A stretch of 64,000 bases of DNA from Callorhinchus milii (GCF_018977255.1 NW_024704742.1:8620001-8684000); one strand, 5' to 3'; numbered from the stretch's first letter, positions 7,322 through 63,508 are shown. A program made the numbers and translations. The notes: generated by a model not told the origin, from the sequence alone.

Positions 7322-8957
7322 TAGAAATGTCAAAATCAGAATCTATGAAGAGAGGAACCAAACCTTGTACTTTATGTTTAAGAATTATTTTAATTACTAA
7401 GGCAGAAATACATATAACTTCACATTGATTCAATAAGCAGGTTACAGCAGGCAGGGTATGGTAGTCAATATTGTGCTGTTACTACAGAAACACATTCACT
7501 TCTTCTCTCTCAGCCAATTTAACTCTTCATGTTTCAAGGCACAGATCACTGACATATTCTAACATCTTATCTGTAGTGACACCAGCTACTCCATAACATC
7601 TGTCACACTTAGAGAGATTCTGCAACTTCGTTTGATGAAGTTTGATTGTCGTTCCACAGATCAGTCAGTCACTAGCTAACAAGCATAAGCATATTTACCT
7701 GCACTGAAACAATAATTTAAACACAAATTCATTTCTAATCACAACAGTTGAAGGCTATGAAGCACAGATTGGGGATAAAAGCATGTTTTTTGGTTGGAGG
7801 CAGGTAATTAATCCAATTCTTCCCTTGTTTGTACTTTGTCTAAAGAAAAACTAAATATTTTTTTGCAGTTGATAAAACTCTCCACATGATCGTCCCTCAA
7901 CCTCCATCATATCAGCCACTTTTCGTATCTGTTCAGCAATTTTTGACTTGGCTCCACTGAGAAAGTAAATGATGTTCTTTATTGCAAAGTAGACCTCATA
8001 CACAACAAAGATTGCTATGAGACGCTGTAAAACAGCCTTCACTGGGTTTACCCTGCGGGTGGCCTCCATGTTGATAATGGGGCGAAAACTACCTAAGCTA
8101 CTGGAGAACATCTCAGCTTTCCCAGTAAATGTGTCTCTTCCTGATTTCATGAACAATTGGATTCTAGTGTTTAGTTTATTGTAGCAATCCGCCATGGCTC
8201 TGCTCTCTGTTTTATATTGTTCTATTATTTCATTCACTCTTATCACTTTCTCTGCTTGTGTAGCAATGATATTGCCACGAGCTACAGAGATACGATTACC
8301 CCTGACTTCAAGCACCAGAACTCCCAGAAGGCTGAGGCTGAATGTGAACACCAACCTTTTCATAATTTCGTTCCCTAATTCTATGACAGTGACTATTCCC
8401 ACATCAAACAGTATCATTCCGACAATACACAGTATGGAGCCCACAATGGTCAGAACTGTGTCTGATCTGTGATGGCTGTCGATGTGGTCCGCAGCCTCTC
8501 GCAGTGTTCTCAGGTGTCCTGCCACCTGTTGTCTCCACACAGAGAGCTGTGATTTAAAGCTCTGCACATCATCAGTCCTCTTTGCCAGCTCAGTGAGGAA
8601 GGCTTTCCTGTGAACACAAACACAACCAACTCTCAGCTACTGCCCACATACACACAGCACCAGACACAGGGAGCCCAGTGGGGTCAGGGCAGCCTTTCCC
8701 ACAGAGGAAAGTAGTTACAGATTTCTGAAGAGAAAGATCATGTGTTGTCCAGAGGGCTGAGGGCAGCTCTGTCTGTCTCTCTCTCTTTTATGTTTGCCAA
8801 CAGCACAATATTGACTACCATACCCTGCCTGCTGTAACCTGCTTATTGAATCAATGTGAAGTTATATGTATTTCTACCTTAGTAATTAAAGGAACTCTTA
8901 AACATAAAGTACAAGATTTGGTTCCTCTCTTCACAGATTCTGAGTTTGACATTTCTA
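7322..8957. repeat. Inverted repeat; arms 7322-7480 and 8799-8957 (~159 bp) flank the APOL-A terminal exon
   Basis: ..gtatggtagtcaatattgtgctgtt (ends 7480) is the reverse complement of aacagcacaatattgactaccatac.. (starts 8799). The inner ~77 bp match perfectly; the outer part has scattered mismatches. Confidence 0.93.
7851..8607 (-). CDS. APOL: Apolipoprotein L-like gene A, large terminal coding exon (divergent paralogue)
   Basis: Acceptor gtttgtgttcacag|G, then an open frame KAFLTELAKRTDDVQSFK..LREAADHIDSHH..RVNEIIEQYKTESRAMADCYNK..SGAKSKIAEQIRKVADMME. It is colinear with the 62755-63508 protein and with the APOL C-terminal GAKS..A..(I/L)..VA motif. Confidence 0.8.
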
Positions 8958-9039
8958 GCAGTTCAAAGGAAACGAGGGAAGTTAAAAAGAGTTGGTCACA
9001 TGATTGTTTTATTATTCAATCTCAGTCTCCAGACTTTAT

Positions 9040-9260
9040 TAATATGCTATAATATAATATTAATATGTTATTTTATTGTTATATTTATTGTCATAATAAA
9101 TTAGTTGATAATTTATAAATAATATTTATAATATTTATAAATAAACAATCTGTAAATATGTGAATAAATACATTTATAAATTAAAGAATTAGAATTTATA
9201 AATATAACATTGCAAATTATTATAGTATAGTTTATATTATTTTATGTAATTTTATATAAG
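9040..9260. repeat. AT-rich low-complexity tract
   Basis: Almost pure A/T with ataatattt-like units; also present at ~33880-34100. Confidence 0.8.
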
Positions 9261-9712
9261 TGTCTGTCATTAAACAACATCTGCCGCCTCTCAGCCCAGT
9301 TCCCCAACCTAACCACGTTTCTGTCCACGAGTCCTGTTATCAGTGACCACTCAATCCGGGATCCGAGTTTAAACCCCAATTGTAGACCATTACCATGAAG
9401 TAACCAGCAGTGACCCCAACACTGAGCCCTGGGCACCTGCCAGTCACTGGCGACGTCTCATTGTGCTCCAGGAACCACTGCCCTTTATTTCCTTTCATTC
9501 AGGGAACTTCTTATCCAATTTACACGTCCCTCTATCCCGCTGACACTAACATGTGTGTGGAGCCAGGAACATCCCCCACCCCCCCATCTCTGAACCTGGG
9601 TGGGGGGGGGGGGGGGAGAGAAATTAAATAAAGAGCCATTCAGACAGAGTCAAATGAGAACGAGAACAATATCAGGCAGTTTCATCAGCGGTTGTCTCAC
9701 ACCTGTACGTAC

Positions 9713-9737
9713 CAGATTTCGGTGTTGCTGACTGTGT
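9713..9737 (-). CDS. APOL: APOL-A 25-nt micro-exon (TVSNTEIW)
   Basis: tttcttgtttaacag|ACACAGTCAGCAACACCGAAATCTG|gtacgt. Same length, phase and donor as the micro-exons at 13214-13238 and 60890-60914, and it joins in frame to 8607. Confidence 0.8.
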
Positions 9738-9829
9738 CTGTTAAACAAGAAAGAAACAAGAGCCATTACCACTGGTTATTAACAGATATTGAATGACAAA
9801 TGTCCTATCCTCCTTCTGGTGTGTGGTGT

Positions 9830-10270
9830 GTGTGGGGTGGTAAGCGAGGTCTCTTCAGAGCTGAACTGGCTCCAAGGTGATATGTTTGCTAACAGAATGT
9901 CAGTATGGAGCCCACCCTCTGTTACGGTCTCTAATGCAGGTCCTGAGCAGCCGGGTCCGCAATATTTCAGAGCACTGCTGATGACAGCTCAGCCCAGCTC
10001 ATCGGCAGGACTTGGAGTGGCAGACTAGCCACAGTAAATCTTCCCAAACAGCTCCTGTTAACCCTGAATGCCTTAACGGATGAGATAGTGCCAGCTGGCA
10101 AACGATGGGAAAGCTTACCAGTGAGAAAAAAACAATGGCAAGCTCTGTGGGATTATCTGGATAGACTCCAGCAGTTACCGCAATGCACACTCTGGGGTCC
10201 ATGTGAAGGGCACCTCTCAAACCTGCTACTAATACTCTCTCCAGAATTAGGTAGCAGGATGCATCCCCTG
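9830..10270 (+). repeat. Unclassified interspersed repeat (related copies at ~16180-16720 +, 25400-25940 +, 58645-58950 +, 61700-61910 -; partial copies at 11300-11420 and 15870-16000)
   Basis: Shared blocks gagctgaactggctccaaggtga, ctgctgatgacagc(c/t)cagc, tagactccagcagtta and ccagaattaggta. No recognisable coding capacity. Confidence 0.75.
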
Positions 10271-10416
10271 TCACGGTCATCTTATTTTTATTAATGCTTT
10301 AACTTTGTCTAATGATATTTCCTATGGATAGCCTGTGCACAGAGAGTTTGTGTTAAAATAAGGCGCTTTGCTTTAAGCGGAATCATGGTCCAGGGAACAG
10401 AATATAATCTTAAAGG

Positions 10417-10418
<2 letters not shown>

Positions 10419-10449
<31 letters not shown>

Positions 10450-10640
10450 CCTTGCATTTGATATAGCGCTTTTCACGTCGGGAGGACGTCCCAAAGCGCT
10501 TCACAGAACACACTGTAAAGTGAATTGACTGCATATTTGTGGGCGAACGCGGCAGCCAATTGCGCACAGCAATGTCCAACAAACAGTCATAGATTGAAAA
10601 TGACCAATCTATTATTGCTTTTGGTTTTGGAGGGATTATT
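10419..10640 (-). mobile_element. tRNA-derived SINE, 5'-truncated, with a long (att)n tail
   Basis: Reverse complement closely matches the 3' two-thirds of the SINE at 59129-59468. Confidence 0.9.
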
Positions 10641-11656
10641 ATCACACACAATGTCTGTGATCTGGGTGAGTGTTGCAACAGAAAGCATAGGAAATCATCA
10701 TGTGGGTCATGGAGCAGGAACCAAGTGATACAACGGCAGGGGAGGAGATTGTAAATGACGGGAAAAGGTATCGAGAGATACATTGAAAGGGGGAGGAGTT
10801 AGGAAAATATAAAATGAGGAGCTCATTAAACTCAGAGTCACTCTTCACTTTTAGTGTCATCAAGAAGGCACGTGCCTGACCTGAGAGCCTTGTCTCTAGA
10901 TCAAGATTGTTTTTTCTTTATTCACTAACTTTAAGCTCCTCGAGTCATAATTATTGTGTCAGAGTTTTTCTGTTTCTTAACGTTGTGACTTTTTATCTTA
11001 TATTGGTCAGTGTAATGAGGTATAGGGTTGTTAGGATCAATAAAGCACCATTGTGTTTTCTAAAAAGCGCATGTCGAGTCTGTTAAATTCAATGATCTAG
11101 AAACAGGTTACTGCAGAAGCCACTGTATGTTAGATGAGAAGGGCACCTACTGAATTATAATTGGGATTACCTGTCATTAATTCTCACACAGTGAAGGGAA
11201 CTTGCACGTCACCAAGAAGAATCTACACAGAGGCCACCTGGGACATTGTGCGCTTAACATAACATGGGTTTACATTTGGGGGTGAGAACCGTCACACCCT
11301 CCAGGGAAAGAGAGCGCATTCCATTCCAGATACAGAAATATCCACAAATGTGGAACACTCAGTCTGGTTTGGAGACTTTTAAGCACCCGATGGGTTTCCA
11401 CGTGTATCAGCCACTCAGTTGCTCAAACAAATTGTATATGTATTTATTTATACAGAATCATTTTCTACCATATATGGAGGTGTAGAATTATAGGCTCGGC
11501 TGGCAAATGAGCAATGGTACAGCTGGAGTGAGCAGGCGGGAGGTGGAGATAGTGAGGGCCAGAGGTGAGGAGGTGCAATCCCTTCTCTTTGACACACACT
11601 GTGCCAGCCTTGCTCTCTCCCCCTCACACACATCACAAGTTTATTATTTGTTTTGG

Positions 11657-12443
11657 TCAGACACAGACAGTTTGATATCTTCCTGCACCCACCCTGAATA
11701 TTATATCACTGGAACCTGCCTCAGCTGCTGCACCTGAGTCCTGTGTGCAGTACATTGATGCAGTACCTGACGGGAAAGGCACTGTACAAATGTAGTTTGT
11801 TGTTGTTACTGTACCTTCCAGATGTTTATAAACCTCTTCATACGCCGTCACTTCATCCTCCAGCACTTTAGCCACATCCTCAATGTGTTTCGCAATATCT
11901 GCCCTGGCTCCACAGTTGAGATTATGACCATCGTTTGCTCTGGGGATCAGAGATGACATGAAAGGCAGCCTTGTCTGAGCTGCTGACCCGGCTTTGGATG
12001 TCACTGTTTCCTGTTTGGTTATTGTTTCATCCACAGCAACAAATCCAGCCAAGGGTTCAGTGAGACTCTCAGCTCCACCAGGAAATGCAGTTTCTGATTT
12101 CTCACAATGCTTCAAGAACTGAACTGCTCGTAAGAGTTTTGTGTAACACTCTGCCATTTTTCTACTGTCCTTTGTATATTGCTCCATGATATCATTAACC
12201 CTTTTCTGTCTCTGTGTTTGGGTAACAATGTCCATGTCACAAGCTGCAGTGTTGGCAGCCCCACCAGCCACACTCTGGCCAACTCCCACACTCGTGACAG
12301 GCTTGTGAATCGAGTAAATGTCGTCTGCGATCTTTTGTAGGTCTCTGATGTAGCTGATCATCCACACTCTCCAGCCAGGGAACAAGGTGACAAAATCTCT
12401 TACATCCTCCTTCCTCTGTTCAACCTCAGCTTTGAGTGCTTTC
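11657..12443 (-). CDS. APOL: Apolipoprotein L-like gene B, terminal coding exon (internal deletion, extended C-terminus; could be a pseudogene)
   Basis: Acceptor attaacag|G, then an open frame KALKAEVEQRKEDVRDFVTLFPGW..LQKIADDI..VGVGQSVAGG..QKRVNDIMEQYTKDSRKMAECY..IAKHIEDVAKVLEDEVTAYEEVY. It is clearly homologous to 62755-63508. Confidence 0.78.
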
Positions 12444-12734
12444 CTGTTAATATGAGAAACTCAATTAGAAACCCAGCTCAGAGGAAGGACACTTGATCAT
12501 CATGTCTGTGCTTCTCACTGAGAGTTATCAACTCTATCCCATTAACCTGCCATTTCCCCATCCCCTCCTCTGCCTTAATTCTTTGATAGGGAAAATGCGC
12601 TGGTAACTGGCAAATAAGGTTTAATTCAAGATTCGAGTTGTAATTTCAGGACAGACACCAGGAAGTTTTTCTTTGCACAGGATAATTAACGACTGGAATA
12701 GAAAGGCGTTTGAGGCCAGGACATTGGATTAACT

Positions 12735-13213: not shown

Positions 13214-13238
13214 CTGTCTTCAGTGTCACTGACTGTGT
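13214..13238 (-). CDS. APOL: APOL-B 25-nt micro-exon (TVSDTEDR)
   Basis: cttgttcaacag|ACACAGTCAGTGACACTGAAGACAG|gtacgt. Phase 1 in, phase 2 out, in frame with both flanking exons. Confidence 0.82.
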
Positions 13239-13715: not shown

Positions 13716-13954
13716 GTTTCTGGCTCCACTGCTGTCAAGGTTTGGCTTCTTTTCTGGCAAATGCAGAGGGTCACGCAGGAGCCGCGAGTGGGGAAAACTC
13801 AACATAACAGAGACTCAGAGACACAGCAATAATAATAATAATTGTAATAATCTTTGCATTTGATACAGAGCCTTATCACTTTGTTGAAAGTTTTCAAAGC
13901 GCTTCACAGAACATACCGTAATGTAAATCGACTGTATATTTTGTGAAATACCAG

Positions 13955-15587: not shown

Positions 15588-15651
15588 CTGGTTTGAGAAT
15601 CCCTGCCATTGTGTGAACTCTTCCCTGTCGTCAATGATGCTTTTGTACAAC
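15588..15651 (-). CDS. APOL: APOL-B 64-nt exon carrying the start codon (ATG at 15609; MAGILKP)
   Basis: ttcttcatttccaaag|..ACAATGGCAGGGATTCTCAAACCAG|gtaatt. Its 22 coding nt give the phase 1 needed by the micro-exon. Same length and coding sequence as 59658-59721. Confidence 0.78.
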
Positions 15652-17429
15652 CTTTGGAAATGAAGAAAACCAATGTGAATCCAATCTCTCCCCATCGTCA
15701 GTGACAAAAACCACAGTCAATCTGATCATTCTGTCAATCACATCCTATATTTAAGTTTGAATTTAATGATTAAAACAATTTATCAGTAATCAATGGGAAG
15801 GGATATGAGTTGTAGACAAGAAGATGGTGGCAATGCTCTCACACATTTCATGCTGAGCTGTGTTTCCTACCAGGAAGTTTGCAGGGAATTCCATACTTAA
15901 AAGGATCCGAAACCAAACAAAGAAATTCCCAAGATGATTATTGGAATGCAATGTATACTCTAGAGAGACACATTCTCTTACCTAATTCCAGAAAGTATTT
16001 TCACTGTAGCTGAGGAGGTTGTGAGGGGTTGATAGAGGTTGACACAATATTGAGGGTCTCAATAGAGACAATAGGAAAAAAAAGTCGCAGGAAGTTCCTG
16101 GTATCTGCCATCCACCCAATGAGGGCTCAAACCCTCACTTGTTGAATGTCACCGACCAACTAGCGACTATACTCTGGAGTGCGGGAGATGACCAAGGTCT
16201 CCTTTGAGCTGAACGGGCTCCAAGGTGACTTGTTTGGCATCAGATTGTTAGAATCAAGCCCACCCTTTGTGACAGTTTCTAATCTAGTTCCTGAGGCAGG
16301 TGGGTCTGCAATACTCCAGGTCACTGCTGATGACAGCCCAGCTTGGCTGGCAAATCGGCAGGGCTTGGAAAGGCAGAACAGTCACTGGGGACAGGGAGTC
16401 ATCCCACTCAGCTCCCATTAAAGCACTCGCGGATTATGTAGACCAAGCTGGATAAGCAATGGGAAGTTTTGCCAGACAGTGATCCCAATGGCAAGCTATG
16501 TGGTCTTAACTGGTTAGACTCCAACAGTTATCCCACAGCACATTTTGGTGTCCTCAAGGTTTGGCTTTTGCCAATTTGTGCCTATTAATTTCTGGAGTTA
16601 GGTAAACCGAATGCATCTCTCCAGGGAGAGAGTGCATATTCCATTCCAATAATCATCTTGGGAATTTCCATGTTTGCTTTGAATACTCTTAAGCACGGTG
16701 ATGTGTTTACACATTGTTTTGGGTCAGCCGGGTGTTTTTGGTCTGTTGTTTATAATGCAATGCAACTCTCTCCCTGGAGTGTTCACTCATATTGAGCCAC
16801 GACAGTGTTCACTGCAATAATCAGAAAGGCTATTTTGGTTATGAAAATGTTACCCACTGAGCAGGAATAGAGGACGGGCAGTGCCCAGTGCTTCTCAGCC
16901 TGGTTTGGCTGTTTCTAGTTTTGAGACTTTGAGTGGGATGTAATTTCAGAACATTAAAATGTTGTTTCTTATACAAGGAATGGAATGTGGTTAGGAATCC
17001 ATCAATGGTGATCAATATTCAACATGTCTCCTCATCAGTGACCCACACAAGGTTACATCAACTTTCTTTGACTTGTCCAGGAATCAGATTCCAGGAATTA
17101 TCTCAGTTCCTGCTCACCCTCACATTTATCACCGTTATTTATTTCCCCACCTTTGTCCTGTTCCACCAACCTTACAATTGAATTACAGTCATATTCCTCA
17201 ATGCTACTGTGTGCAATAATCCTTTCACTAACATCTACTATACTTGAGCACTGAAGGTTAATAATTGACCACCAGTTTAGATAAGTCCAGCAGGTAAATG
17301 TTAATCAGTGTTTGCTGGTGACTTCTGGGCCATAAATCTCAATGAAATCAAAATGTTTTCATAATAATCAATGAAAGCTCAGGAGGGGATTGAACCACCA
17401 GGGGACAGAAGTGGTAAACAGGTGAAGGA

Positions 17430-20219: not shown

Positions 20220-21069
20220 AGTTGAAGAATACCCTTCAAACCCATCTGATCTCATCCCTCCAGGAAAACCACCCCATTGTTATCACAGCACAGAGCTGCT
20301 TTTTAAATTAATCCAGTGGCCTGGCCTCAGTCAGCCATCCTGTCAACTTGTTCCAGTCGTTAATTACCTTCTGGGTAAAGAAAAACTTCCTGGTGTTTGT
20401 ACTGAAATTCTCCTTTACATCTCTAAACCTGTGTCATCTTGTTGTACTGTCATATACATCTTAAAATATCGATCTGGGTTTACAATTTCAATCCTCCATG
20501 AGATTCCCTCTGAGTTGTCTTCTTTTAAAGTTGAAGAACCCTAGCTTGTTGAATTGTTGCTCATAGCCTGGGCCAATAGAAAATCGCCCTGTGATTTTTT
20601 CACGGAATCAACGAAAATAAACACATCACGAGAAACAGTAAAAGTGAAGATTGCTCTGCCCCTGGCCTCTCTATACCCTGCTGCCCACTGTTTGCTTGGC
20701 CTCTCTCTTTGGTGCCTCTGTGCATACGACTGTGGTGGAGCAGTTCCAGACATGGCTCCAGAGGGGACATGGGATTTGCTTTCTGGGGAGTGACCATGAC
20801 CCCCCCCACCTCCAACAGCTGCCACTGCTGAGATTGTCTGTGGGCACGCTGTCTGTCAATGTGCATGTCTTCCCCACTGGCTGTAATGTTTGTGTGTCTC
20901 TCTCTCTCTCTGTCTGCTTGTCTTTCTGGGTGTCTATGTGCGGTGGCTTGCCCGAGAGGCAGAAGATGATGACCTCCTGGAATATCGCAGTCAGGACTCT
21001 GGCGAGCTTGGCAAGCAATGCTGGGCTCGGCATATCTCCAGGCCTTTGAATGCAATGCTATCGTCCAAG

Positions 21070-21940
21070 GATACACACTCCACCTTATTAAGCCAGTCCA
21101 GAACCTTGGCTTCATGTTTGACCCTCAAGTATCCTTTCTACTCCACGCCTGTACCATGGTCTGCTCTGCTTTCCCCCACCTCCGCAACATCGCCCGGTTC
21201 CACCACTGTCTCACACTACAAGTGGCCAAAGTCTTCATACACACATTTCTAACATCCAGGCTTGACTATGGAAACTTCCGGCTTGTCGGCCTCCCCAACT
21301 CCTCCCTCCATAGGCTACAGATAATCCAGAACTCTGCAACCTGTGTCCACTCCCGCACCAGGCTCCGTGAACCTATCATGCCCATACCCACCCAACTCCA
21401 CTGGCTTTCCATCACACAGAGGATAACATTCAAGATCCTGGTTCTCACCTTCAAAGTCCCACATGGATTTGATCACCCCTATCTCTGTGACCTCATAACC
21501 CCCTACCATCCTGCCTGCTCCCTCCATTCAGCGGGCTCCTGCCTACTTCATGTCACCCAGCTCACCCCACCATTGGAGAGGCAGGCCTTCAGCCACTCTG
21601 CCCCCAATCTCTGGAATTCCATCCCACAGTCCTACTGCCTGGCCCCTTCTTTGCCTCCTTCAAGACCCTCGTTTCGCCCACAAATATACAGTCAATTCAC
21701 TTTACAGTATATTCGTTGAAGTGCTTTGAGACGTCTAGAAGACGTGAAAAGCACTATATCAAATGCAAGGATTATTATTATTATTAAGACCCATCTCAAG
21801 AACCTCCTCTTTGACCCTGCCTTTGTTTACCCCTCTTTCACCCACATTCGTTAACGCTCCCAAATCCTGACCCCCAGCTCGGAAACACTGATTGTTCAGT
21901 GCCTTGGGATGTCCTCCTGACGTTAAAGGCGCTATACAAA
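21070..21940 (+). mobile_element. L2 LINE 3' part with a nested SINE tail (21669-21785, aagaccc target duplication)
   Basis: VQNLGFMFD..HLRNIAR..TSRLDYGN..RLQIIQNSA..LHWLSITQRITFKILVLTFK. The SINE piece is flanked by aagaccc on both sides. Confidence 0.88.
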
Positions 21941-22959
21941 TTTCAAAAGTTCCAAATTGTCCAGTCTTTCCTGTTAGTATCCATTCATCCCTGAGAACAT
22001 ACTCATAAACTTATTACATCCAAGTAAAATTATAGTGCAATAGGAAAGTGAATCAATTGGGTAGCCCAGGCCTCCCCACTGTACAATGTGGGGAGGGGCA
22101 GAGGAACCTGAAGCAGGTTTCAATGATGGAAAATCAACATGCACAATGGGTTTGGCTGCTTTGTGTGGTTCTGGTTGGCTGTGGCACCAACTATTCAATT
22201 GTGACAAGAGCGGATGCGAAATACAGCAACTCCTATCAGAGCATCACCTGGTAGCAAAGTTACAGAAGTGACTTATCACCACATCAGAAAGAACGTTTGA
22301 TTGTCCAACCATTTCCCAACACGTCGTCCTCATTACTCCTCCCTCCATCTGCTTCTCACATGTTCCCTTTCCTACTGACTGAATCTGCTGCACTGAAGGT
22401 CGTTCAATCTGCTGGATTTATGGGGTAATGTATGGTGATGGATTTCTGTGTGTCAGACGTCTGGCTGAAAAAAACAAAAAATTCACCAATCTACTCTGTG
22501 CATTTATAATCCCAGAACTTGTCAGTATTCGATCCCTTTGTGACCTTCTCTGTTACAGCTTATGGAGACATTTATAATATTATCCATTTAGATATAGTGA
22601 CGTATGACACTAAAACATCTGAAAGTATCCACAAGAAGCTATTTTAACTGTAGTGAATATTATGTAAGGAAATACAGCATCAAATCTACAGAAGCACCAT
22701 CCCACATAGTGATGTGACGAGTTGTCAATCAGAATTGTGATCTTGTTGGGATTACACTGGCACACCTCTGGGAGAGATCCAGGATGACAGGACACTATTT
22801 TATTCACCACCACCATCTTTATGTATCTATTACTACACATGCACACAGAAATTTGACTGTTGATGCAATCTTCATAAACACTGCATTCAGAATCTGGGTT
22901 ACTCTGGCTGCCTGATGCTATGATGGAGGGATGGTAGAGTAGGTGTTCTGTAGGGTGTT

Positions 22960-24180
22960 AATGGATTTTTTGTTCCCATGTGAAGTACTTTACATTTCTC
23001 CACATTGAATTTCATCTGCCAATTCCCAAGTGTGTTCAAACCCTCCTGTAACCTATCTCGTTCAGCTTCGCAATCTATCACCTTCATTAGTTTGGTGTCA
23101 TCTACAAACTTATCCATTGTGTTTGTGACTCCTAGTTCCAGATCATTTATAAAAACATTGAACAAAAGAGACGCTTGTGAAACTCCACTGGTAATATTTT
23201 CGCAGTTTGATGATATTCCCTGTACCACCACCCTCTGGGTTCTTCCAGCCAAACAATTACGTATCCATTGTAATATACCTCCACTGATTCCTGTTTTCTT
23301 TACTTTCAGTGCCAGCCTCTCAAGGGGAACTGTGTCAAAGGCCTTATTGAAATCCAGATATGCAACATGCACAGCCTTACCCTTACCAAGCTCCCTTGTC
23401 ACACCATCAAAGAAAACCAGTACATTAGATTGGCAAGACCTTCCCTTCATTAACCCATATTGGCTATCATTTATGATTTTATTTCTGTCCAGATTCTCCA
23501 TGATTTTATCATTAATAAGAATCTCCATAATTTTACCACAATAGACATCATTACCATGCTCCTAATTACTATGCCACCAGGTTGGTGTCATATGCAATTT
23601 TGATCCCACACCTCTTGTACCTCCATCCACATCATTTACGTGTAAGGCAATTCATAGCGGCCCTTACACAGATCCCTGCTGAACACCAATCCCTAACTCT
23701 CACCAGCTTGAGAAGATATCTTTATCTCCTACCATTTGCTTTCGCTTTCTGAACTGCTCTTCAATACATTCTGCTACCTCTTCCATGATTCCACATGACC
23801 CTATTTTAGCATGAGCTTCTCATGTGGCACTTTATCAAAGATCTGAAAATCCAGATACACTACATCAACTGCATTTCCTGTCAACTATATTGGTTACATC
23901 TTCAAAGAATTTGAAAAGGTTGGTCAAACGTAACCTTAAATTCATGCTGGCTGCTTGCAAATATATTCCCCTTTTCCAGATGACTAGTTATTATTATAGA
24001 TTCCAATATTTTGCCCACAACCAATATTATGCTGACTGGCCTGTGGTTTCCAAGATTCGCTCTATCAACTTTTTTTCCGAATAGATATAACATTGGCCAT
24101 TCCTGTCCTTCCTTAGTTCTTTGATATATACATGCTATCTCATCCCTAGTTTCTCTAAGAATCCTTAAGAATTTTTGTGG
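22960..24180 (-). mobile_element. CR1 LINE RT fragments
   Basis: SQYGLMKGRSC..YLDFNKAFDTVP..FINDLE..KFVDDTKL..WQMKFNVEKCKVLHMG, and GNHRPVSII. Confidence 0.88.
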
Positions 24181-27480: not shown

Positions 27481-28096
27481 GGATTATCCCTGGTGTAAGC
27501 TGTGCACAGGGACAGGGTGAGATGTCTGTATTGGGATTCCCAGACACAGCCCATATCTGGAAAATGTGTCATTTATGACATGATCAAGTGTAGATGCAGT
27601 GCTGCTCAGTGGGGGAACATGAGCTGATCCCCTCCATGGCTAACAGATCGCTCATCTGCAGTTTGTGGGATTCAGGGAAGTCTAATACAGCAGCAATCGG
27701 TGCTTTTGGAGGGAGAGGGAGAAAACATCCTGCGTGACTTTGTTAATGTATCACATGTCATTTCCAGCGCAGCATTGCAATTTAATCTGTTTTCAGGCAA
27801 CGTCCGAGTTCCTGCGCAAAATATCCAGTCAAATCGAGAGGTGTTTTGCTGTAGTTATTGAGATCAGATTTTAAGTGGAATTGAGAAAGTAAACCTTTGG
27901 AGACAGTGGAACAAGAGCTCCCAGGTTCAGAGTTGCAGAGCGCAATTTCAGGACAGACAGCAGGAAATATTTATTTACCAGAGGGTTAATGAAACTGTTT
28001 GCCAGGCAGAGTATTTGAGGTCAGAATGCAGTGATGGGTAGGATGTGTATTCTGGAAAGAGGAAATTAAATGAGCTAAAGGGTCTTCGTTTTGAAC

Positions 28097-28670
28097 AGGG
28101 AGACGGGAGAGGTGTCAGAGAGACGGGAGAGGTGTCAGAGAGAGGGGGAGAGCTGTCAGAGAGAGAGGGGGAGAGCTGTCAGAGAGAGAGGGGGAGAGGT
28201 GTCAGGGAGAGGGGGAGAGGTGTCAGGGAGAGGGGGAGAGGTGTCAGGGAGAGGGGAGAGGTGTCAGGGAGAGGGGGAGGTGTCAGGGAGAGGGGAGAGG
28301 TGTCAGGGAGAGGGGGAGAGGTGTCAGGGAGAGGGGGAGAGGTGTCAGGGAGAGGGGGAGAGGTGTCAGGGAGAGGGGGAGAGGTGTCAGGGAGAGGGGG
28401 AGAGGTGTCAGGGAGAGGGGGAGAGGTGTCAGGGAGGGGGAGAGGTGTCAGGAGAGGGGGAGAGGTGTCAGGGAGAGGGGAGAGGTGTCAGGGAGGGGGA
28501 GAGGTGTCAGGGAGAGGGGGAGAGGTGTCAGGGAGAGGGGGAGAGGTGTCAGGAGGGGGAGAGGTGTCAGGAGAGGGGGAGAGGTGTCAGGGAGAGGGGG
28601 AGGGTTTCAGGGAGGGGTGGGGAGAGGTGTCAGGGAGAGAGGTAGTGGTTTCAGGGAGGGGTGGGGAGAG
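28097..28670. repeat. Purine-rich minisatellite, ~19-21-bp unit GGGAGAGGGGGAGAGGTGTCA (duplicate at 52978-53522)
   Basis: Long tandem array, which explains the RGGEVSG / GERCQGE ORFs. Confidence 0.95.
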
Positions 28671-29059
28671 GAGCAAGGGAGCTTGGTGTCCACACCTCAG
28701 TGCAGGATGACTACATACTTATAGATACAGCCGCTATGTGTTTGGGGCTGAATTGGCAGGTCCTCCAGTGTGGCATGTGCTGCTCACTACACACTCCAAC
28801 TGTAGCCAACACGGGATTCACTGGATGGTCCCCCTCCCCTTACACCCACCTCAGGGGGCGCAGGAGAGGAATAGGGGCAAGCTCACTGGACCTGACAAGA
28901 GCATGGCTGGGGATCCAAGCTCTTACATGAGGGGCTCAGCTTGTAACTGTATTGGAAGGGTCAAAGGTTTGGGTTTATTTCCAATGAGGAAACCCAGTAC
29001 ATAGTGAGTGACTGCCTTTATCGCGGGGGGATTGGGCCACATTATAGAAATGGTATTAC

Positions 29060-30604: not shown

Positions 30605-30705
30605 NNNNNNNNNNNNNNNNNNNNNNNNNNNNNNGAGCATTTTTGGTTAGAGTACTATACTGTGCAGCGAATGATGCTTTCGTCACGATATCACCGCATA
30701 AAATA
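30605..30705. other. Assembly gap (30 N, 30605-30634) plus ~71 bp of unmatched contig-start sequence
   Basis: The N run is visible. 30635-30705 matches neither 5786-5856 nor the sequence after 55466. Confidence 0.95.
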
Positions 30706-35259: not shown

Positions 35260-35292
<33 letters not shown>

Positions 35293-46400: not shown

Positions 46401-49400
46401 CTACTTCATGTCACCCAGCTCACCCCACCATTGGAGAGGCAGGCCTTCAGCCACTCTGCCCCCAATCTCTGGAATTCCATCCCACAGTCCTACTGCCTGG
46501 CCCCTTCTTTGCCTCCTTCAAGACCCTCGTTTCGCCCACAAATATACAGTCAATTCACTTTACAGTATATTCGTTGAAGTGCTTTGAGACGTCTAGAAGA
46601 CGTGAAAAGCACTATATCAAATGCAAGGATTATTATTATTATTAAGACCCATCTCAAGAACCTCCTCTTTGACCCTGCCTTTGTTTACCCCTCTTTCACC
46701 CACATTCGTTAACGCTCCCAAATCCTGACCCCCAGCTCGGAAACACTGATTGTTCAGTGCCTTGGGATGTCCTCCTGACGTTAAAGGCGCTATACAAATT
46801 TCAAAAGTTCCAAATTGTCCAGTCTTTCCTGTTAGTATCCATTCATCCCTGAGAACATACTCATAAACTTATTACATCCAAGTAAAATTATAGTGCAATA
46901 GGAAAGTGAATCAATTGGGTAGCCCAGGCCTCCCCACTGTACAATGTGGGGAGGGGCAGAGGAACCTGAAGCAGGTTTCAATGATGGAAAATCAACATGC
47001 ACAATGGGTTTGGCTGCTTTGTGTGGTTCTGGTTGGCTGTGGCACCAACTATTCAATTGTGACAAGAGCGGATGCGAAATACAGCAACTCCTATCAGAGC
47101 ATCACCTGGTAGCAAAGTTACAGAAGTGACTTATCACCACATCAGAAAGAACGTTTGATTGTCCAACCATTTCCCAACACGTCGTCCTCATTACTCCTCC
47201 CTCCATCTGCTTCTCACATGTTCCCTTTCCTACTGACTGAATCTGCTGCACTGAAGGTCGTTCAATCTGCTGGATTTATGGGGTAATGTATGGTGATGGA
47301 TTTCTGTGTGTCAGACGTCTGGCTGAAAAAAACAAAAAATTCACCAATCTACTCTGTGCATTTATAATCCCAGAACTTGTCAGTATTCGATCCCTTTGTG
47401 ACCTTCTCTGTTACAGCTTATGGAGACATTTATAATATTATCCATTTAGATATAGTGACGTATGACACTAAAACATCTGAAAGTATCCACAAGAAGCTAT
47501 TTTAACTGTAGTGAATATTATGTAAGGAAATACAGCATCAAATCTACAGAAGCACCATCCCACATAGTGATGTGACGAGTTGTCAATCAGAATTGTGATC
47601 TTGTTGGGATTACACTGGCACACCTCTGGGAGAGATCCAGGATGACAGGACACTATTTTATTCACCACCACCATCTTTATGTATCTATTACTACACATGC
47701 ACACAGAAATTTGACTGTTGATGCAATCTTCATAAACACTGCATTCAGAATCTGGGTTACTCTGGCTGCCTGATGCTATGATGGAGGGATGGTAGAGTAG
47801 GTGTTCTGTAGGGTGTTAATGGATTTTTTGTTCCCATGTGAAGTACTTTACATTTCTCCACATTGAATTTCATCTGCCAATTCCCAAGTGTGTTCAAACC
47901 CTCCTGTAACCTATCTCGTTCAGCTTCGCAATCTATCACCTTCATTAGTTTGGTGTCATCTACAAACTTATCCATTGTGTTTGTGACTCCTAGTTCCAGA
48001 TCATTTATAAAAACATTGAACAAAAGAGACGCTTGTGAAACTCCACTGGTAATATTTTCGCAGTTTGATGATATTCCCTGTACCACCACCCTCTGGGTTC
48101 TTCCAGCCAAACAATTACGTATCCATTGTAATATACCTCCACTGATTCCTGTTTTCTTTACTTTCAGTGCCAGCCTCTCAAGGGGAACTGTGTCAAAGGC
48201 CTTATTGAAATCCAGATATGCAACATGCACAGCCTTACCCTTACCAAGCTCCCTTGTCACACCATCAAAGAAAACCAGTACATTAGATTGGCAAGACCTT
48301 CCCTTCATTAACCCATATTGGCTATCATTTATGATTTTATTTCTGTCCAGATTCTCCATGATTTTATCATTAATAAGAATCTCCATAATTTTTACCCACA
48401 ATAGACATCATTACCATGCTCCTAATTACTATGCCACCAGGTTGGTGTCATATGCAATTTTGATCCCACACCTCTTGTACCTCCATCCACATCATTTACG
48501 TGTAAGGCAATTCATAGCGGCCCTTACACAGATCCCTGCTGAACACCAATCCCTAACTCTCACCAGCTTGAGAAGATATCTTTATCTCCTACCATTTGCT
48601 TTCGCTTTCTGAACTGCTCTTCAATACATTCTGCTACCTCTTCCATGATTCCACATGACCCTATTTTAGCATGAGCTTCTCATGTGGCACTTTATCAAAG
48701 ATCTGAAAATCCAGATACACTACATCAACTGCATTTCCTGTCAACTATATTGGTTACATCTTCAAAGAATTTGAAAAGGTTGGTCAAACGTAACCTTAAA
48801 TTCATGCTGGCTGCTTGCAAATATATTCCCCTTTTCCAGATGACTAGTTATTATTATAGATTCCAATATTTTGCCCACAACCAATATTATGCTGACTGGC
48901 CTGTGGTTTCCAAGATTCGCTCTATCAACTTTTTTTCCGAATAGATATAACATTGGCCATTCCTGTCCTTCCTTAGTTCTTTGATATATACATGCTATCT
49001 CATCCCTAGTTTCTCTAAGAATCCTTAAGAATTTTTGTGGAGAGTCTTTAACAACAACTTGCATTTTTATAGAACCCTCCAAGCCGGGGGCGTCTCAGAG
49101 CATTTAACAATGGCGGAGCATGATGCTGAGGCAGGGGCAAGGGGAAGGTAATTGTAGGCATGATCGAAGAGGAAGGTCTTCAGGTTTATTAAAAACCTGT
49201 AGCGTAATGCTCAGAGCATTTGCTTTGCAAACAAGAGGACGAAACATTGGACAACTTTCCTTAGTCCACATACATCTGTTCACCGAGCAGTAAGTAAGAA
49301 CCCGGTCAGTTGATTGGCGGATTGCTTTTCCATGCTCCATGATCTTATCATAATAATAATCCTTGCATTTGATATAGCGCTTTGAGTAATCTCGAAGATG

Positions 49401-52400: not shown

Positions 52401-55400
52401 GTCTGTATTGGGATTCCCAGACACAGCCCCATATCTGGAAAATGTGTCATTTATGACATGATCAAGTGTAGATGCAGTGCTGCTCAGTGGGGGGAACATG
52501 AGCTGATCCCCTCCATGGCTAACAGATCGCTCATCTGCAGTTTGTGGGATTCAGGGAAGTCTAATACAGCAGCAATCGGTGCTTTTGGAGGGGAGAGGGA
52601 GAAAACATCCTGCGTGACTTTGTTAATGTATCACAATGTCAGTTCCAGCGCAGCATTGCAATTTAATCTGTTTTCAGGCAACGTCCGAGTTCCTGCGCAA
52701 AATATCCAGTCAAATCGAGAGGTGTTTTGCTGTAGTTATTGAGATCAGATTTTAAGTGGAATTGAGAAAGTAAACCTTTGGAGACAGTGGAACAAGAGCT
52801 CCCAGGTTCAGAGTTGCAGAGCGCAATTTCAGGACAGACAGCAGGAAATATTTATTTACCAGAGGGTTAATGAAACTGTTTGCCAGGCAGAGTATTTGAG
52901 GTCAGAATGCAGTGATGGGTAGGATGTGTATTCTGGAAAGAGGAAATTAAATGAGCTAAAGGGTCTTCGTTTTGAACAGGGAGACGGGAGAGGTGTCAGA
53001 GAGACGGGAGAGGTGTCAGAGAGAGGGGGAGAGCTGTCAGAGAGAGAGGGGGAGAGCTGTCAGAGAGAGAGGGGGAGAGGTGTCAGGGAGAGGGGGAGAG
53101 GTGTCAGGGAGAGGGGGAGAGGTGTCAGGGAGAGGGGAGAGGTGTCAGGGAGAGGGGGAGAGGTGTCAGGGAGAGGGGAGAGGTGTCAGGGAGAGGGGGA
53201 GAGGTGTCAGGGAGAGGGGGAGAGGTGTCAGGGAGAGGGGGAGAGGTGTCAGGGAGAGGGGGAGAGGTGTCAGGGAGAGGGGGAGAGGTGTCAGGGAGAG
53301 GGGGAGAGGTGTCAGGGAGAGGGGGAGAGGTGTCAGGGAGAGGGGGAGAGGTGTCAGGGAGAGGGGGAGAGGTGTCAGGGAGAGGGGGAGAGGTGTCAGG
53401 GAGAGGGGGAGAGGTGTCAGGGAGAGGGGGAGAGGTGTCAGGGAGAGGGGGAGAGGTTTCAGGGAGGGGTGGGGAGAGGTGTCAGGGAGAGAGGTAGTGG
53501 TTTCAGGGAGGGGTGGGGAGAGGAGCAAGGGAGCTTGGTGTCCACACCTCAGTGCAGGATGACTACATACTTATAGATACAGCCGCTATGTGTTTGGGGC
53601 TGAATTGGCAGGTCCTCCAGTGTGGCATGTGCTGCTCACTACACACTCCAACTGTAGCCAACACGGGATTCACTGGATGGTCCCCCTCCCCTTACACCCA
53701 CCTCAGGGGGCGCAGGAGAGGAATAGGGGCAAGCTCACTGGACCTGACAAGAGCATGGCTGGGGATCCAAGCTCTTACATGAGGGGCTCAGCTTGTAACT
53801 GTATTGGAAGGGTCAAAGGTTTGGGTTTATTTCCAATGAGGAAACCCAGTACATAGTGAGTGACTGCCTTTATCGCGGGGGATTGGGCCACATTATAGAA
53901 ATGGTATTACAGGATCCACCACCCACTACCTCCTCCGTGCCCCCCCTCAGGCCCGCCTCAATCTTCGTATCAAATGCCAAGTACGAGGAGGTCATGGACT
54001 TCTTTTCATCTAAAATACTTAACATCCACCAGGCAACCTCATCCACCTGCCCCTTGTCACCCACCACCACGCCCTCTCTGCCCCCCTCAGCCTCCTCATC
54101 ACCTGCTCCTACCACCACACCCATCCTACATTCCTTCCTCCCCATCTCTCCCTCCTCCCTCTCACCCACCATCACTTCCATGGAACCCACCACCTGCTGC
54201 CTCAACCCCCTCCACACCAACTTACTGGTCACCCAGCTCCCCCTCCTCTGCCCACTACTGGCTGACATCATCAACCAGTCCCACTCCTCTGGATCAGTTC
54301 CTGCCTCCCTCAAAACTACTGTCATCATGCCCCTCTTGAAAAAATCCTCCCGAGATCCCTCAAACCCCAGCCATTACTGCCCTATTTCTAACCTGCCCTT
54401 CCTCTCAAAAGTTCTAGAACGCGCTGTTGCCAACCAACTTCGCGCACACCTCTCCTCCCATTCCCTCTTCAAACCCCTTCAGTCTGGTTTCCGCCCACAG
54501 TACAGAGACTGCTCTTGTGAAAGTCACAAACGACATCCTCTCTATCTGTGACCGGGGCTCCCTCTGCCTCCTTGTCCTCCTGGACCTCTCGGCCGCGTTC
54601 GACACAGTCGATCACTCATCCTCCTCCACCGCCTTTCCTCTGTCATCCACCTCAGTGGGACTGCACTCACCTGGTTCGAGTCCTACGTCACAAACCGCCA
54701 GCAGTACATCTGCACAAACAGCTTCTCCTCCTACTCTCACCCGGTCACTTGCGGGGTACCCCAAGGATCCATCCTTGGCCCCCTCCGCTTTCTGATCTAC
54801 ATGCTCAATCTTGGGGATGTCATCCACAGACATGGGGTACATTTCCACATGTATGCAGATGACACCCAACTCTATTTTTCCACTTCTCTTTGCAACTTCC
54901 AGTCCCCTGATGTTCTGTCAGCTGCCTGTCAGATCTCAGGGGCTGGATGAGCACTTCCTTCAACTGAACGTTGACAAGACGGAAACTATACTCTTTGGCT
55001 CTAAAATCTCAAGGCTCTCACATCCTCCACCTACTCAACCTCCCCCTAAAACTCTCCGAACCCGTACGTAACTAGGGCATCAGGTTCGACCCCCAATTAT
55101 TCTTCCTCCCCCACATCCGGTCCCTCACTAGCACCGCTTTCTTTGACCTCTGACTCATCGCCCATCTCCACCAATACCTCTCCCCAAAAGCCGCTGAAAC
55201 CCTGGTCCATGCCTTTGTCACCTCTCAGCTGGACTACTCTAACGCCCTCCTCACCAATCTCCCATCCACTACCATCCATAAAATCCAAATAATTCAAAAC
55301 TCTGCCGCCCGCGCCTTTGGTCACCTTTCTCCCACTCCCCCCGGCTCAGCCCCGGGATCCGTTACTGTAAAGCGCTCTGAGACGCTGTCCAGAGTGGAGG

Positions 55401-55962: not shown

Positions 55963-55984
55963 GCCGAATGCTGATTTCTTCAAC

Positions 55985-59468: not shown

Positions 59469-59657
59469 TCTTGGAATACAGAGATGTTTATCTGTCCCTG
59501 GATACACATCCTTCCCATTGATCACTGACAAATTGTTTTAAACACTAAATTCAAACTTAAATATAGAATGTGATTGACATAATGATCAGAATGACTGTGG
59601 TTATTGTCACTGAGGATCGAGTGATTGGATTGACATTCATTTTTTTCATTTCCAAAG

Positions 59658-59721
59658 ATTATTCAGAAACATCATCAACGACTTGAAAGAGTTCACACAA
59701 TGGCAGGGATTCTCAAACCAG
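59658..59721 (+). CDS. APOL: APOL-C 64-nt exon with the start codon (ATG at 59700; MAGILKP)
   Basis: tttttcatttccaaag|..ACAATGGCAGGGATTCTCAAACCAG|gtaatt. Good Kozak context (A at -3, G at +4); phase 1. Confidence 0.8.
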
Positions 59722-59751: not shown

Positions 59752-60055
59752 GGAAAGTCCTGTAACTCAGTGGTTAGAGCACTTGCCTCGCAAGTGAAAG
59801 GACCTGGGTTTGATTCCTATAAAAATTAAAAATATTAAAATATGAAAAAATATTAAAAATAATCCTTTTTAAAAAAAATTATTTGGTCATACAATCCATG
59901 ATTGTTTGTGGGACACTGCTGTGAGTAATTGGCTGCCATGTCTCGCTACAAGATATACAGTCAAGTCATTTTACAGTATATTTTGTTAAGTGCTTTGAGA
60001 TATCTCGAAGACGTGATAAGGTGCTAAATCAAATGCAAGAGACTATTGTTATTAA
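59752..60055 (+). mobile_element. Older SINE insertion flanked by a 33-bp direct repeat (59714-59746 and 60080-60112)
   Basis: tRNA-like head gtcctgtaactcagtggttagagc and SINE tail. caaaccaggtaattaatctattggaattgatga occurs on both sides. Confidence 0.85.
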
Positions 60056-60889: not shown

Positions 60890-60914
60890 ATGCAGATCTT
60901 GATGGAATGTACTG
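60890..60914 (+). CDS. APOL: APOL-C 25-nt micro-exon (ADLDGMYW)
   Basis: atttaccag|ATGCAGATCTTGATGGAATGTACTG|gtacgt, with the flanking intron homologous to 13200-13350. Confidence 0.8.
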
Positions 60915-61229
60915 GTACGTACAGTCATAAAATTGTGGGTCAATAATTATATAGGTGTGGGTTTGTGCTACAGCAAAAAAGCCATCTATCCAACTCCTCT
61001 GTTCTTTCACCATCATTTCTAACATCTGCTCTTCATATGTTCTTTTTAAATTCACTTCCAAAATACCTCAACCAATGCTCCATCAACAGACACTGCTGGA
61101 AATTCATTCCATGTTCTGAGAATCCTTTCCCTAACTTTCCTAACTTCACTTTATCTTTTGTCCAACTCTGTCTGATTGTTGTTTCTTGTTCTATTGCCTC
61201 TCATCATCCAGTCAATACCACCCCCCCAG

Positions 61230-61640
61230 CCCTGGTGTGGGATTTAGACCCCAGACATCACCCTCTGGTCAGGCCTTGAATACTGCAGACAGCTCTGATC
61301 ACTGTGACATAAAGGGACTGCCCTGACACTAGAGACAGTGCAGAGGAGAGCAATGTGGCTGATCCCCAGTGTTAGAGGAATGAGCTGTGAGCAATAACTA
61401 GACAAGCTCAAGCTCTGCAGTCTTGAGAGAAGACAACTCAGGGGGGATCTCATAGTGGTGTGTAACATTTTAAATGGGATTGAAAAGGTAAACCCAGATC
61501 AATACATTAGAATGCTCTAAGGCAGTAGACTTAAGGAGACAGGGCTGGAGATGTAAAGTACAACTTCAGGACAGACATCAGGAATTTGTCTTTACCCAGA
61601 GGGTAATTAACAACTGGAACACATTGTCCAGGAAGAATGG
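61230..61640 (+). mobile_element. Old CR1 3' fragment
   Basis: LVRP.LEYC-like and SLERRQLRGDLI-like remnants, plus FTQRVINNWN. Confidence 0.7.
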
Positions 61641-62754
61641 TTGAGGCCAGGACATTGGCCACATTTTTCTCCATCTCCTCAGTCACTTTTGTTGGTCAGC
61701 TGTGTGTCTGACACATGCAGAAACCCAACACCATGCTTAAGAGTATCGAAACCAAACAGAGAATTCCATGCAGCCTACCTACACGTGGAAATTCCAAAGA
61801 TAGATTGGTGCTTTCCCAACTCCAGAAAGTATTAGACACAGGTTGGCAAAATCCAATGCTTGGGGCCCCCAAAGTGTGTGTTGGGATACTGTTGGAGTCT
61901 AACCAGCTAACACCACCTTACTATATATTAACCAGCTAACACACAGACTGTCTTCCAAAAGTGGAGGTATAATTTCCAGGGTACAGAAGGAGATTGTAAG
62001 AACAATATCTATAGTAGCTTAACACTGTAGGCTAAATATCACCATTAAGATAGAACAGTACCAAACATGATACAAAATATTAATCTATACTTTTCAGCAG
62101 GAGTTATATTGTCACTGCAGTAAAGATGGGACCTCACAGTGTAAATAATACTCTCTGATTAGAAAGTAAACTGGAACATTACTTTCAGGTATCTCAAAGC
62201 AACAGGGCAAGATGATAGGACAGTGTCATGGTGTGAAGGGCATGTTCCAACAGGTATCCAGACACCAACAAGTATCTTCAAGGAGGAGAAATAATGACTA
62301 GAATCAATTATCAGGAAGGTGATTGAGGCCAGGAAATGGATTCATTTAAGAAATAGCTTGTTGCGGTGATGGGAAATGTTTGGGTAGGTTTTCAGGAAAG
62401 ATGAGATCAACCGTGTCAATCTCCTGGGCAGCTTCCCTCCTCTGTGTAAATCACTGAAGCTCACACTCTCAATCACTGGAGTACTGATGTCCAGTAATAC
62501 AGCTCCAAACTACTTCCCTATTGGTCACATCCTGGATCCTATGCCCACCTGCATTCCCTGCCCCGTCCCCCCCATGCCCCACAGTTCCCTGCCTTGTGCC
62601 ACTACATTCCCCACCCAGTACCTTTCTCCTTTCCTTACTGTGTGCCACTCCACATGACACCTGCCACTCTGCATTGCACTCACAATGAGGATCAGTTCAT
62701 GTTTCAGGCCAATGATGTGTGAACGCTCCTGAGATATAATTGTATTTATAACAG

Positions 62755-63508
62755 GGACTCATATGAATTGGATAATAAAGCCGAGGACTTACAAAGTTTT
62801 CCAAAGAAGTTCCCTGACTGGAAAGCAAGGATGAATCAACATGTGATATTACTCCAAGAGATCGCAAATAATATTGACGAGTGTCACAAAGGTGCCACCA
62901 TTGCCAATATTACAGGGTCTTCTGTAGGTGTTGTTGGAGGGGCTCTAACTATTGGAGGTCTAATTGCTGCCCCTTTCACATTGGGTACATCATTGATACT
63001 CACGGGTGTGGGAGTTGGGGTGGGTGTAGCTGGTGGTCTCACTAACATCACAGCTAGTGCAGTGGATTCTGCTTCACAATCCAATAAACAAAAAAGAGTT
63101 AATGAAATCATGGAAAAGTATAAAAAGGACAGTGAGGAAATGGCAGATTGCTTCAATAAATTCCGCAATGCAGTTGATTTCTATGAGAATTGCAGTGACA
63201 AATTGGAAAAAGAAGCTTTCATTGGTGTGGCTGAGGTCTTTGCAAAAAGCTTGGGTGTTTTTCCTGCAGTTGCTTCAGCCGTGACCAAACAGTCCTTAAG
63301 AACATTCAAGGCGGTTTCTGGCGTTCTGTCAGGACTCTTTGTTGCGTGGGATATCTACTCTATCACAGTGGATTCCATTGACCTCAGCAAAGGAGCCGAG
63401 ACAGAAATGGCTAAACAGATACGAGATGTGGCTCGAAAGATAAAGGATGAGGTAATGAAGTATGAAGAGGTTTATGAAGCTTTAAGTCAAACTGTAAAGC
63501 AAATCTAG
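62755..63508 (+). CDS. APOL: Apolipoprotein L family protein (APOL-C; intracellular APOL3-like), terminal coding exon; full model 266 aa
   Basis: Acceptor tttataacag|G. Hallmark APOL sequence FPDWK..LQEIANNIDECHKGATIANITGSSVGVVGGALTIGGLIAAPFTLGTSLILTGVGVGVGVAGGLTNITAS..SGLFVAWDIYSI..KGAETEMAKQIRDVA. No signal peptide in the model. Confidence 0.92.

Follow-up and report, generated by a model that had tools for sequence, protein, structure and literature searches.

LOC103187865 in an ApoL array of Callorhinchus milii: a predicted tandem-domain gene with a hairpin-less first domain

How many apolipoprotein L (ApoL) genes are present in an interval in which three long ApoL-like frames each run to a stop? 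The question is raised by a stretch of 64,000 nucleotides from Callorhinchus milii, which corresponds to C1:8620001-8684000 of the 0.99-Gb genome of this chimaera, the elephant shark, and is called the window here, with positions counted from its first letter. A list of stop-to-stop open reading frames in the window contains three that are ApoL-like, namely 7851-8636 (-), 11657-12460 (-) and 62723-63508 (+), termed A, B and C, respectively. The first-pass annotation, made from the DNA alone, took them for three separate genes of a small immune cluster. The explanation that is favoured here, and to which as a whole we give a probability of about three in four, is that the interval carries two distinct ApoL-family genes and not three: BA (LOC103187865), of which B and A are the predicted halves, and gene C, which is a canonical single-domain ApoL. 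The host had been guessed to be a cartilaginous fish, and this guess was right, since the exact or near-exact protein matches are those of Callorhinchus milii.

Gene models of BA and C

BA lies on the minus strand in five coding exons, which are joined through canonical AG/GT sites into one open frame of 485 codons. Gene C lies on the plus strand in three coding exons, and its spliced model of 266 residues agrees at 265 of them with P0001, a protein annotated as 'apolipoprotein L3-like'. The parts of both genes, with the evidence for each in brackets, are as follows.

15588-15609, minus strand: BA exon 1, coding part, ATG and MAGILKP, donor CAG/gtaatt, phase 1 (exact 25-nt match, splice context)
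13214-13238, minus strand: BA micro-exon 1, 25 nt, DTVSDTED and a split R, donor CAG/gtacgt (splice context)
11815-12443, minus strand: BA body exon 1 (the earlier 'B'), 629 nt, internal, with a hairpin-less ApoL domain and the donor GAAG/gtacag in phase 1 (conserved donor)
11657-11814, minus strand: start of the intron after body exon 1, through which the earlier open reading frame ran to the stop at 11657 (loss of conservation, RefSeq/Ensembl splice)
9713-9737, minus strand: BA micro-exon 2, 25 nt, DTVSNTEI and a split W, donor CTG/gtacgt (splice context)
7851-8607, minus strand: BA body exon 2 (the earlier 'A'), ApoL domain with three hydrophobic segments, stop TAG at 7851-7853 (Pfam 37.4 bits, hydropathy)
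59700-59721, plus strand: gene C exon 1, coding part, MAGILKP (exon-1 match, spliced model)
60890-60914, plus strand: gene C micro-exon, 25 nt, DADLDGMY and a split W, donor CTG/gtacgt (splice context)
62755-63508, plus strand: gene C terminal exon, canonical ApoL domain with a Gly-rich hydrophobic hairpin (Pfam ApoL 143.2 bits)

Ahead of every body exon there is a micro-exon of 25 nt, which is flanked by an AG acceptor and a gtacgt donor and has the same phases throughout; the length, the phase and the donor had been described for A, B and C in the first-pass annotation. BA as a whole is built of a common start exon, after which the module of a 25-nt micro-exon and a body exon of ~630-750 nt comes twice.

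The five-exon model of BA is identical, letter for letter, to the RefSeq protein XP_042194007.1 (P0038, 485 aa, 'uncharacterized protein LOC103187865'), which was found by a search for longer relatives of A. In the frame of B the donor GAAG/gtacag comes directly after ...YKHLE, and its phase 1 is the entry phase of the micro-exon of A and also the phase of exon 1. The junction between B and A is crossed by four other database models: the older RefSeq entry XP_007905742.1 (485 aa, one difference), XP_007905743.1 (480 aa, an isoform with another start), the UniProt/Ensembl fragment A0A4W3ICC7 (233 aa), which ends with ...KHLEDTVSNTEI inside the micro-exon of A, and A0A4W3H3X0, an Ensembl model of a paralogue. 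The window has three copies of the start exon, one each ahead of B, of C and of B', a body exon of the second BA copy that is described below, and no start exon was found between B and A in a search of the window, or ahead of A in the paralogous units that were fetched. An alternative start exon of A was looked for by eye in 9738-11656, where there is one ATG-initiated stretch; its GT is in the wrong phase, and the stretch lies within a repeat that is also found near gene C, so that it was rejected. Because the fused model equals the RefSeq protein, the donor is conserved and in phase, and there is no intervening start exon, B and A are, on these gene models, two halves of one five-exon gene and not the separate genes for which they had first been taken.

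The same design is repeated outside the window. A tblastn search of the genome with gene C gave 37 matches on the window's contig, counted as ~29 distinct ApoL body exons in C1:8.35-8.73 Mb, and one further ApoL locus at 72.3 Mb. The window is a slice of this ~380-kb ApoL array, and the cluster of three members that had been proposed proves to be far larger: the window alone holds five ApoL body exons, the extra two being A' (32694-33449) and B' (36658-37277), which show up in the list of open reading frames as two shorter look-alikes at 32694-33245 (-) and 36287-37191 (-). In the fetched parts of the array, which cover C1:8.36-8.54 Mb at chosen loci only, every B-type exon has, 1-4 kb downstream and in the same orientation, a micro-exon and then another ApoL body exon, which makes nine units; U8 is the BA gene of the window and U9 is the second copy in the window. 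The second domain is of the A type in seven units and of another type, termed D and ~35% identical to gene C, in the remaining two (U4 and U7), so the tandem design has at least two kinds of second domain. These two units, which are near-identical and lie at C1:8419336-8425281 and C1:8590838-8596643, combine a hairpin-less B-type domain with a D-type one.

The order of exon 1, micro-exon, B, micro-exon and A is the same in the fetched paralogous units, and all acceptors and donors are kept in nine of nine units. The donor GAAG/gtacag follows KHLE in each of the nine B-type exons; right after gtacag the similarity collapses, and the indels there are not multiples of three. The length of the B body exon is 2 modulo 3 in eight of the nine copies (the exception, U7, measures 631 nt), a length class that the second copy in the window keeps only as the net of several indels.

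Could the three frames still belong to as many separate ApoL genes, every one with a micro-exon and a terminal exon to itself, and could A and B be paralogues that evolve independently or decay? Each of them has a long open frame to a stop and a 25-nt micro-exon of its own, and the Ensembl-derived model A0A4W3J0S1 carries B through to its stop. However, A is without a preceding start exon both in the window and in the fetched paralogous units, the tail of B beyond gtacag is not conserved, the fused 485-residue model equals a RefSeq entry, and no unit departs from the order of B before A or from the phases, which makes three genes hardly credible.

Domains, divergence and descent of the tandem gene

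The ApoL family assignment of the three frames was made in the first-pass annotation, which proposed a search with the Pfam ApoL profile. With PF05461, the curated cutoff of which is 25.9 bits, gene C scores 143.2 bits (a second C score is 140.6) and A alone 37.4, both above the cutoff; B alone, with 25.5 bits, falls 0.4 bits below it, but over 203 aligned residues B shares 41% identity with gene C, which it matched in the genome search at E = 1.1e-29, and the family assignment stands. The whole BA protein scores 56.4 bits in two stretches, A is 34% identical to gene C in a pairwise alignment, and the B' and A' look-alike pieces score lower than C, A and B, or not at all.

What distinguishes the domains is the hydrophobic hairpin. 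In a Kyte-Doolittle scan of 19 residues with a threshold of 1.6, the hairpin of gene C is found at residues 72-114. The second half of BA has three hydrophobic segments (P0038 residues 281-313, 315-337 and 425-450), the first two of which make up a hydrophobic helical hairpin as in C, and the first half has no hydrophobic segment, its maximum being 0.84. In comparison with C, ~35 hairpin residues are deleted in domain B, where a 'VGVGQSVAGG' remnant is kept, whereas in domain A the length of the hairpin is kept with almost no common residues there; the alignments and hydropathy bear out the earlier description of one canonical, one rewritten and one largely deleted hairpin. The scaffold is common to A, B, C and the paralogues, with the motif KRVNEI.E.Y...S..MA.C after the hairpin and a C-terminal helix GA...A..I..VA...E....E.Y, and the motifs named earlier, RVN(E/D)I(M/I)E.Y....MA.C and GA...(I/M)A..I..VA, are present in the pairwise alignments. 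Since it has no hydrophobic segment and ~35 residues are deleted, domain B is a degenerate ApoL-derived domain and not a full ApoL module. The BA product is a tandem-domain ApoL without a signal peptide-like start: both domains are in one frame, joined by predicted splicing and conserved among the paralogues.

Structures were predicted with AlphaFold from alignments of 11 rows (A2) and 49 rows (A3). The full-length BA protein, with 11 alignment rows, is predicted to form four long helices in its B half, with a predicted local distance difference test (pLDDT) score of 70-86. In the A domain, with 49 family rows, the scaffold helices 2-46, 108-162 and 222-250 are confident and the hydrophobic parts are of low confidence. 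Foldseek gave no match in the PDB at E <= 0.001, only generic helical bundles, and in a wide VIA-align search the best match (Z 11.4) was again to designed or generic helical bundles, with no specific fold relative. A PDB sequence search with P0038 gave nothing at E <= 1.

The ratio of non-synonymous to synonymous change (dN/dS) was calculated by the Nei-Gojobori method pooled over paralogue pairs, with 95% intervals from a column bootstrap; the values are rough, as the pairs are non-independent and gene conversion is possible. They are 0.83 (0.57-1.28) for domain B, 1.60 (1.13-2.35) for domain A and 2.44 (1.52-4.49) for the hairpin columns of A, the other four parts of A having 0.97-1.66 with intervals that all include 1. 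The body-A exon has diverged by 0.137-0.164, as much as the introns beside it (0.106-0.146) or more. These estimates agree with a concentration of non-synonymous change in the membrane segment, as had been suspected from the sequence of the three frames. PMC8557400 (citing Smith and Malik, 2009) reports positive selection of primate APOLs in or near putative transmembrane parts, a pattern that the hairpin-focused dN/dS of domain A parallels.

An open fused frame is found in U2, U3, U5, U6 and U8, and a broken one in U1, U7 (frameshifted in B) and U9; the model of U4, which covers the B domain and the second micro-exon only, the D domain not being joined, is open through that part. Among U5, U6 and U8 the body exons differ by in-frame indels of 6, 3 and 6 nt; body A also shows a single 1-nt indel in each of the two pairs that include U8, an indel that was not located and was taken to lie at the end of the frame. 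Each intron has 6-20 small indels, most of them of a length not divisible by three. As comparative evidence, the open frames and this pattern of indels argue strongly against pseudogenes, the alternative that the first-pass annotation had kept for A and B.

One may ask whether the tandem-domain genes are decaying relics all the same, the whole B-A family drifting neutrally. A dN/dS of domain B near 1 and the broken frames of three of the nine units would fit such decay. Yet, five frames of 485 codons are without a stop, the body-exon indels are in frame except for the single unlocated one while the introns have accumulated theirs mostly out of frame, and the dN/dS of the A hairpin exceeds 1 with a lower bootstrap bound of 1.52, so that neutral decay is very improbable. 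Another explanation would treat the splice from B to A as minor read-through or as an artefact of annotation, the main product being a short hairpin-less B protein and the exons of A rarely or never expressed. The gene models are computational, and a B-only read-through model exists. This seems unlikely, because the A frame is open in five units with its indels in frame (again but for the unlocated one), the donor and the acceptor of the A micro-exon are kept in nine of nine units, and A outpaces the introns at non-synonymous sites while remaining open, which is not expected of unexpressed DNA.

Where do the tandem domains come from? A maximum-likelihood tree of 41 domains, for which 251 of 1075 columns were kept, places B, A and D in one clade (97 ultrafast bootstrap, 96 in the Shimodaira-Hasegawa-like approximate likelihood ratio test) that contains no ApoL of any other species; gene C and the elasmobranch sequences are outside. 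The phylogeny supports what the first-pass annotation had proposed, a lineage-specific expansion, here in the chimaera and independent of the mammalian ApoL expansion. Among 1.84 billion representative proteins there were 29 matches at E <= 0.001, of which 25 are weaker than 1e-30 and the four strong ones were taken as Callorhinchus milii paralogues (species name confirmed, P0037 included). In these searches the ApoLs sampled outside Callorhinchus were all single-domain, Ambystoma P0049 having a partial internal repeat. On the simplest reading, the module of micro-exon and body exon would have been duplicated in the chimaera lineage, or neighbouring genes would have fused, and the whole BA unit would then have been copied at least seven times in the ~380-kb array.

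Several points weigh against the explanation by two gene types with a tandem-domain BA. UniProt A0A4W3J0S1 (348 aa, Ensembl-derived) reads through the donor of B, so that a B-only form may exist alongside the fused form; we infer the use of the B donor from annotation models and conservation, and the expression of the fused form is likewise presumed. Domain B alone misses the PF05461 cutoff by 0.4 bits and the interval of its dN/dS includes 1, and all dN/dS values share the roughness described above. In the AlphaFold model of full-length BA the mean pLDDT is 49 and the A half is below 50, and contacts between the halves are unreadable. The tree tool gave a warning of long branches that come together among the A and D domains of the B+A+D clade.

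The 24.8-kb repeat and further features of the array

BA is present twice in the window, within a direct repeat of 24.8 kb. Is the second copy a second gene?

5857-30604, no strand: repeat copy 1, which holds the intact BA gene (self-comparison)
30605-30634, no strand: gap of 30 N exactly at the junction of the copies, the only N run in the window (N scan)
30706-55466, no strand: repeat copy 2, 99.15% identical to copy 1
32694-40467, minus strand: second BA copy, with exon 1 at 40446-40467, micro-exon at 38051-38076, body B' at 36658-37277, micro-exon at 34554-34578 and body A' at 32694-33449

Between the repeat copies there are 61 substitutions and 84 indels; indels of 1 nt make up 66 of the latter, and 42 of these 66 lie beside runs of the same base. 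The frame of the second BA copy is broken by five indels that are not multiples of three: one of 1 nt in the micro-exon, one of 1 nt in body A', and two of 1 nt together with an 8-nt deletion in body B', where an in-frame 3-nt deletion is also found. The 71 bases after the gap are unique in the genome. Since the gap is at the junction and the indels, mostly of 1 nt, outnumber the substitutions, the second copy is probably the same locus assembled twice, either a retained haplotype or an unpolished overlap.

A genuine and very recent tandem duplication, in which the B'-A' gene is already inactivated, is possible rather than probable. The copies are head to tail and copy 2 continues into unique sequence, some copy-2 variants occur in a protein model from another assembly, and array genes of this kind duplicate often, as the near-identical U4 and U7 illustrate. 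However, a true duplication would have to place the only gap of the window exactly at its junction, the excess of indels over substitutions and the many of 1 nt look like consensus error or haplotype retention, and several frame-breaking indels in ~1.46 kb of exons at a substitution divergence of ~0.25% are much for real decay. Redundancy of the assembly, which we prefer, has points of its own to answer: the tail of A0A4W3J0S1, which derives from an older assembly, has residues of the copy-2 type, so that some of the copy differences are real variants; two other nearby gaps of 30 N have no repeats beside them; and the dot-plot of a true tandem duplication would look identical.

The repeat carries other sequences along. 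A GC-rich 21-nt minisatellite at 28075-28681 and 52977-53533 is open in three frames, with Gly/Glu/Arg-rich repeats, and its copy number differs between the 24.8-kb copies (17- and 18-nt deletions). Long open frames at 22899-23561 (-), 47757-48407 (-), 29571-30098 (+), 54418-54950 (+), 20973-21719 (+) and 45831-46577 (+), duplicated with the repeat, resemble fragments of reverse-transcriptase-bearing retroelements, as judged by eye from their translations.

The BA units have ~170 bp upstream of the ATG in common with gene C and with three other copies of exon 1 in the array. The block was located by alignment in the following places.

15610-15780, minus strand (window): upstream block
59530-59699, plus strand (window): upstream block
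C1:8419170-8419335, 8526170-8526340, 8556259-8556430, 8575600-8575790 and 8718990-8719200: upstream block

Within it, ~45-62 nt before the ATG, an 18-nt element TTTTCTTCATTTCCAAAG is nearly invariant in nine aligned rows; it may resemble IRF-type half-sites. Short runs of ATT/TAT trinucleotides at 10410-10450 (-) and 13830-13860 (-) stand beside a repeated element of ~100 nt ('...tacagtgtgttctgtgaagcgctttg...'). By eye, this element containing tacagtgtgttctgtgaagcgctttg, of which further copies stand in several of the array's introns and in the vicinity of gene C, is probably a repeat like a short interspersed nuclear element. Elsewhere in the array, P0009 of Callorhinchus milii (LOC121849701, 420 aa) represents another architectural variant: it is an ApoL that has a hydrophobic segment at the N-terminus and in which a long series of AKEAAGKA-like repeats is inserted ahead of the last hydrophobic helix.

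Related systems and the possible role of BA

The RefSeq record of LOC103187865 describes the same gene, with no family name and no description of the two-domain design, the hairpin loss, the units or the selection. Both genes are thus already in RefSeq, gene C under a family name; the two-domain design and the array were not found in print, and no paper on a chondrichthyan or two-domain ApoL was found, in the literature searched, the coverage of which did not extend to subscription-only papers. The available portion of PMC6854765 does not treat ApoL. P0001, the 'apolipoprotein L3-like' protein, has in common with BA the exon 1, the micro-exon layout and the ~170 bp upstream, but P0001 is single-domain and has the Gly-rich canonical hairpin. 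Mammalian APOLs (human APOL1-6, mouse Apol) share the PF05461 homology with BA, and like them BA has most of the protein encoded in large exons of a clustered birth-and-death array, in mammals one large last exon; unlike them, BA has two fused domains, one without any hydrophobic segment.

The ApoL-like protein P0049 of Ambystoma mexicanum (614 aa) has an internal repeat, seen by eye, and gave four matched stretches in the protein search; only its C-terminal third is repeated. It differs from BA in being without a hairpin-less full domain, and because it falls outside the B+A+D clade, it is not related by descent to the chimaera fusion. A borderline phmmer match (E = 0.003) links residues 77-158 of gene C (window ~62940-63180) to the ClyA-family pore-forming toxin components NheB (6tao) and MakE (6w08); in both groups long helices form a bundle that has a hydrophobic hairpin, and the match covers the hairpin and the next helix. 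Foldseek comparison with SmhB, AhlB, XaxB and MakA gave E >= 0.12, and VIA-align gave a Z of 7.9 with YaxB. The fold searches did not bear out the sequence match. Membership in the ClyA family is not claimed.

ApoLs are membrane-active innate-immune effectors, the mammalian APOL1 and APOL3 having channel-forming and membrane-disrupting roles, and it is still debated how the host cell stays unharmed. By analogy with the mammalian intracellular APOLs, the BA protein may be a cytosolic, membrane-inserting defence effector, acting as a channel or by membrane disruption; interferon induction and membrane activity of these genes are likewise suggested by what mammalian APOLs do. The C-terminal hairpin would be the membrane-active and fast-evolving part, and the soluble pseudo-ApoL domain at the N-terminus could be an in-built partner for regulation or targeting, which might, for instance, shield the hairpin until the protein is activated. 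Taken to its end, this line of thought would have chimaeras evolve and amplify a new ApoL effector, in which a hairpin-less scaffold was fused ahead of a fast-diversifying membrane-inserting domain and the dead copy became an intramolecular guard or decoy, which either holds the pore-forming half back in a soluble, inactive state until it is triggered or binds those factors of pathogens that target ApoLs. We regard this scenario as speculative and rather doubtful.

For annotation of the genome the analysis means that three genes become two gene types, that an 'uncharacterized' RefSeq gene receives a family name and that a probable false duplication of 24.8 kb in the assembly is flagged. If the guard or decoy scenario were true, BA would have a built-in regulator, which is not known for any ApoL. 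The fusion of a membrane-dead to a live ApoL may also provide a comparative system for the role of the scaffold apart from the hairpin. Finally, the array indicates that among the earliest-branching jawed vertebrates, too, there are ApoL arrays that bear signs of diversifying selection.

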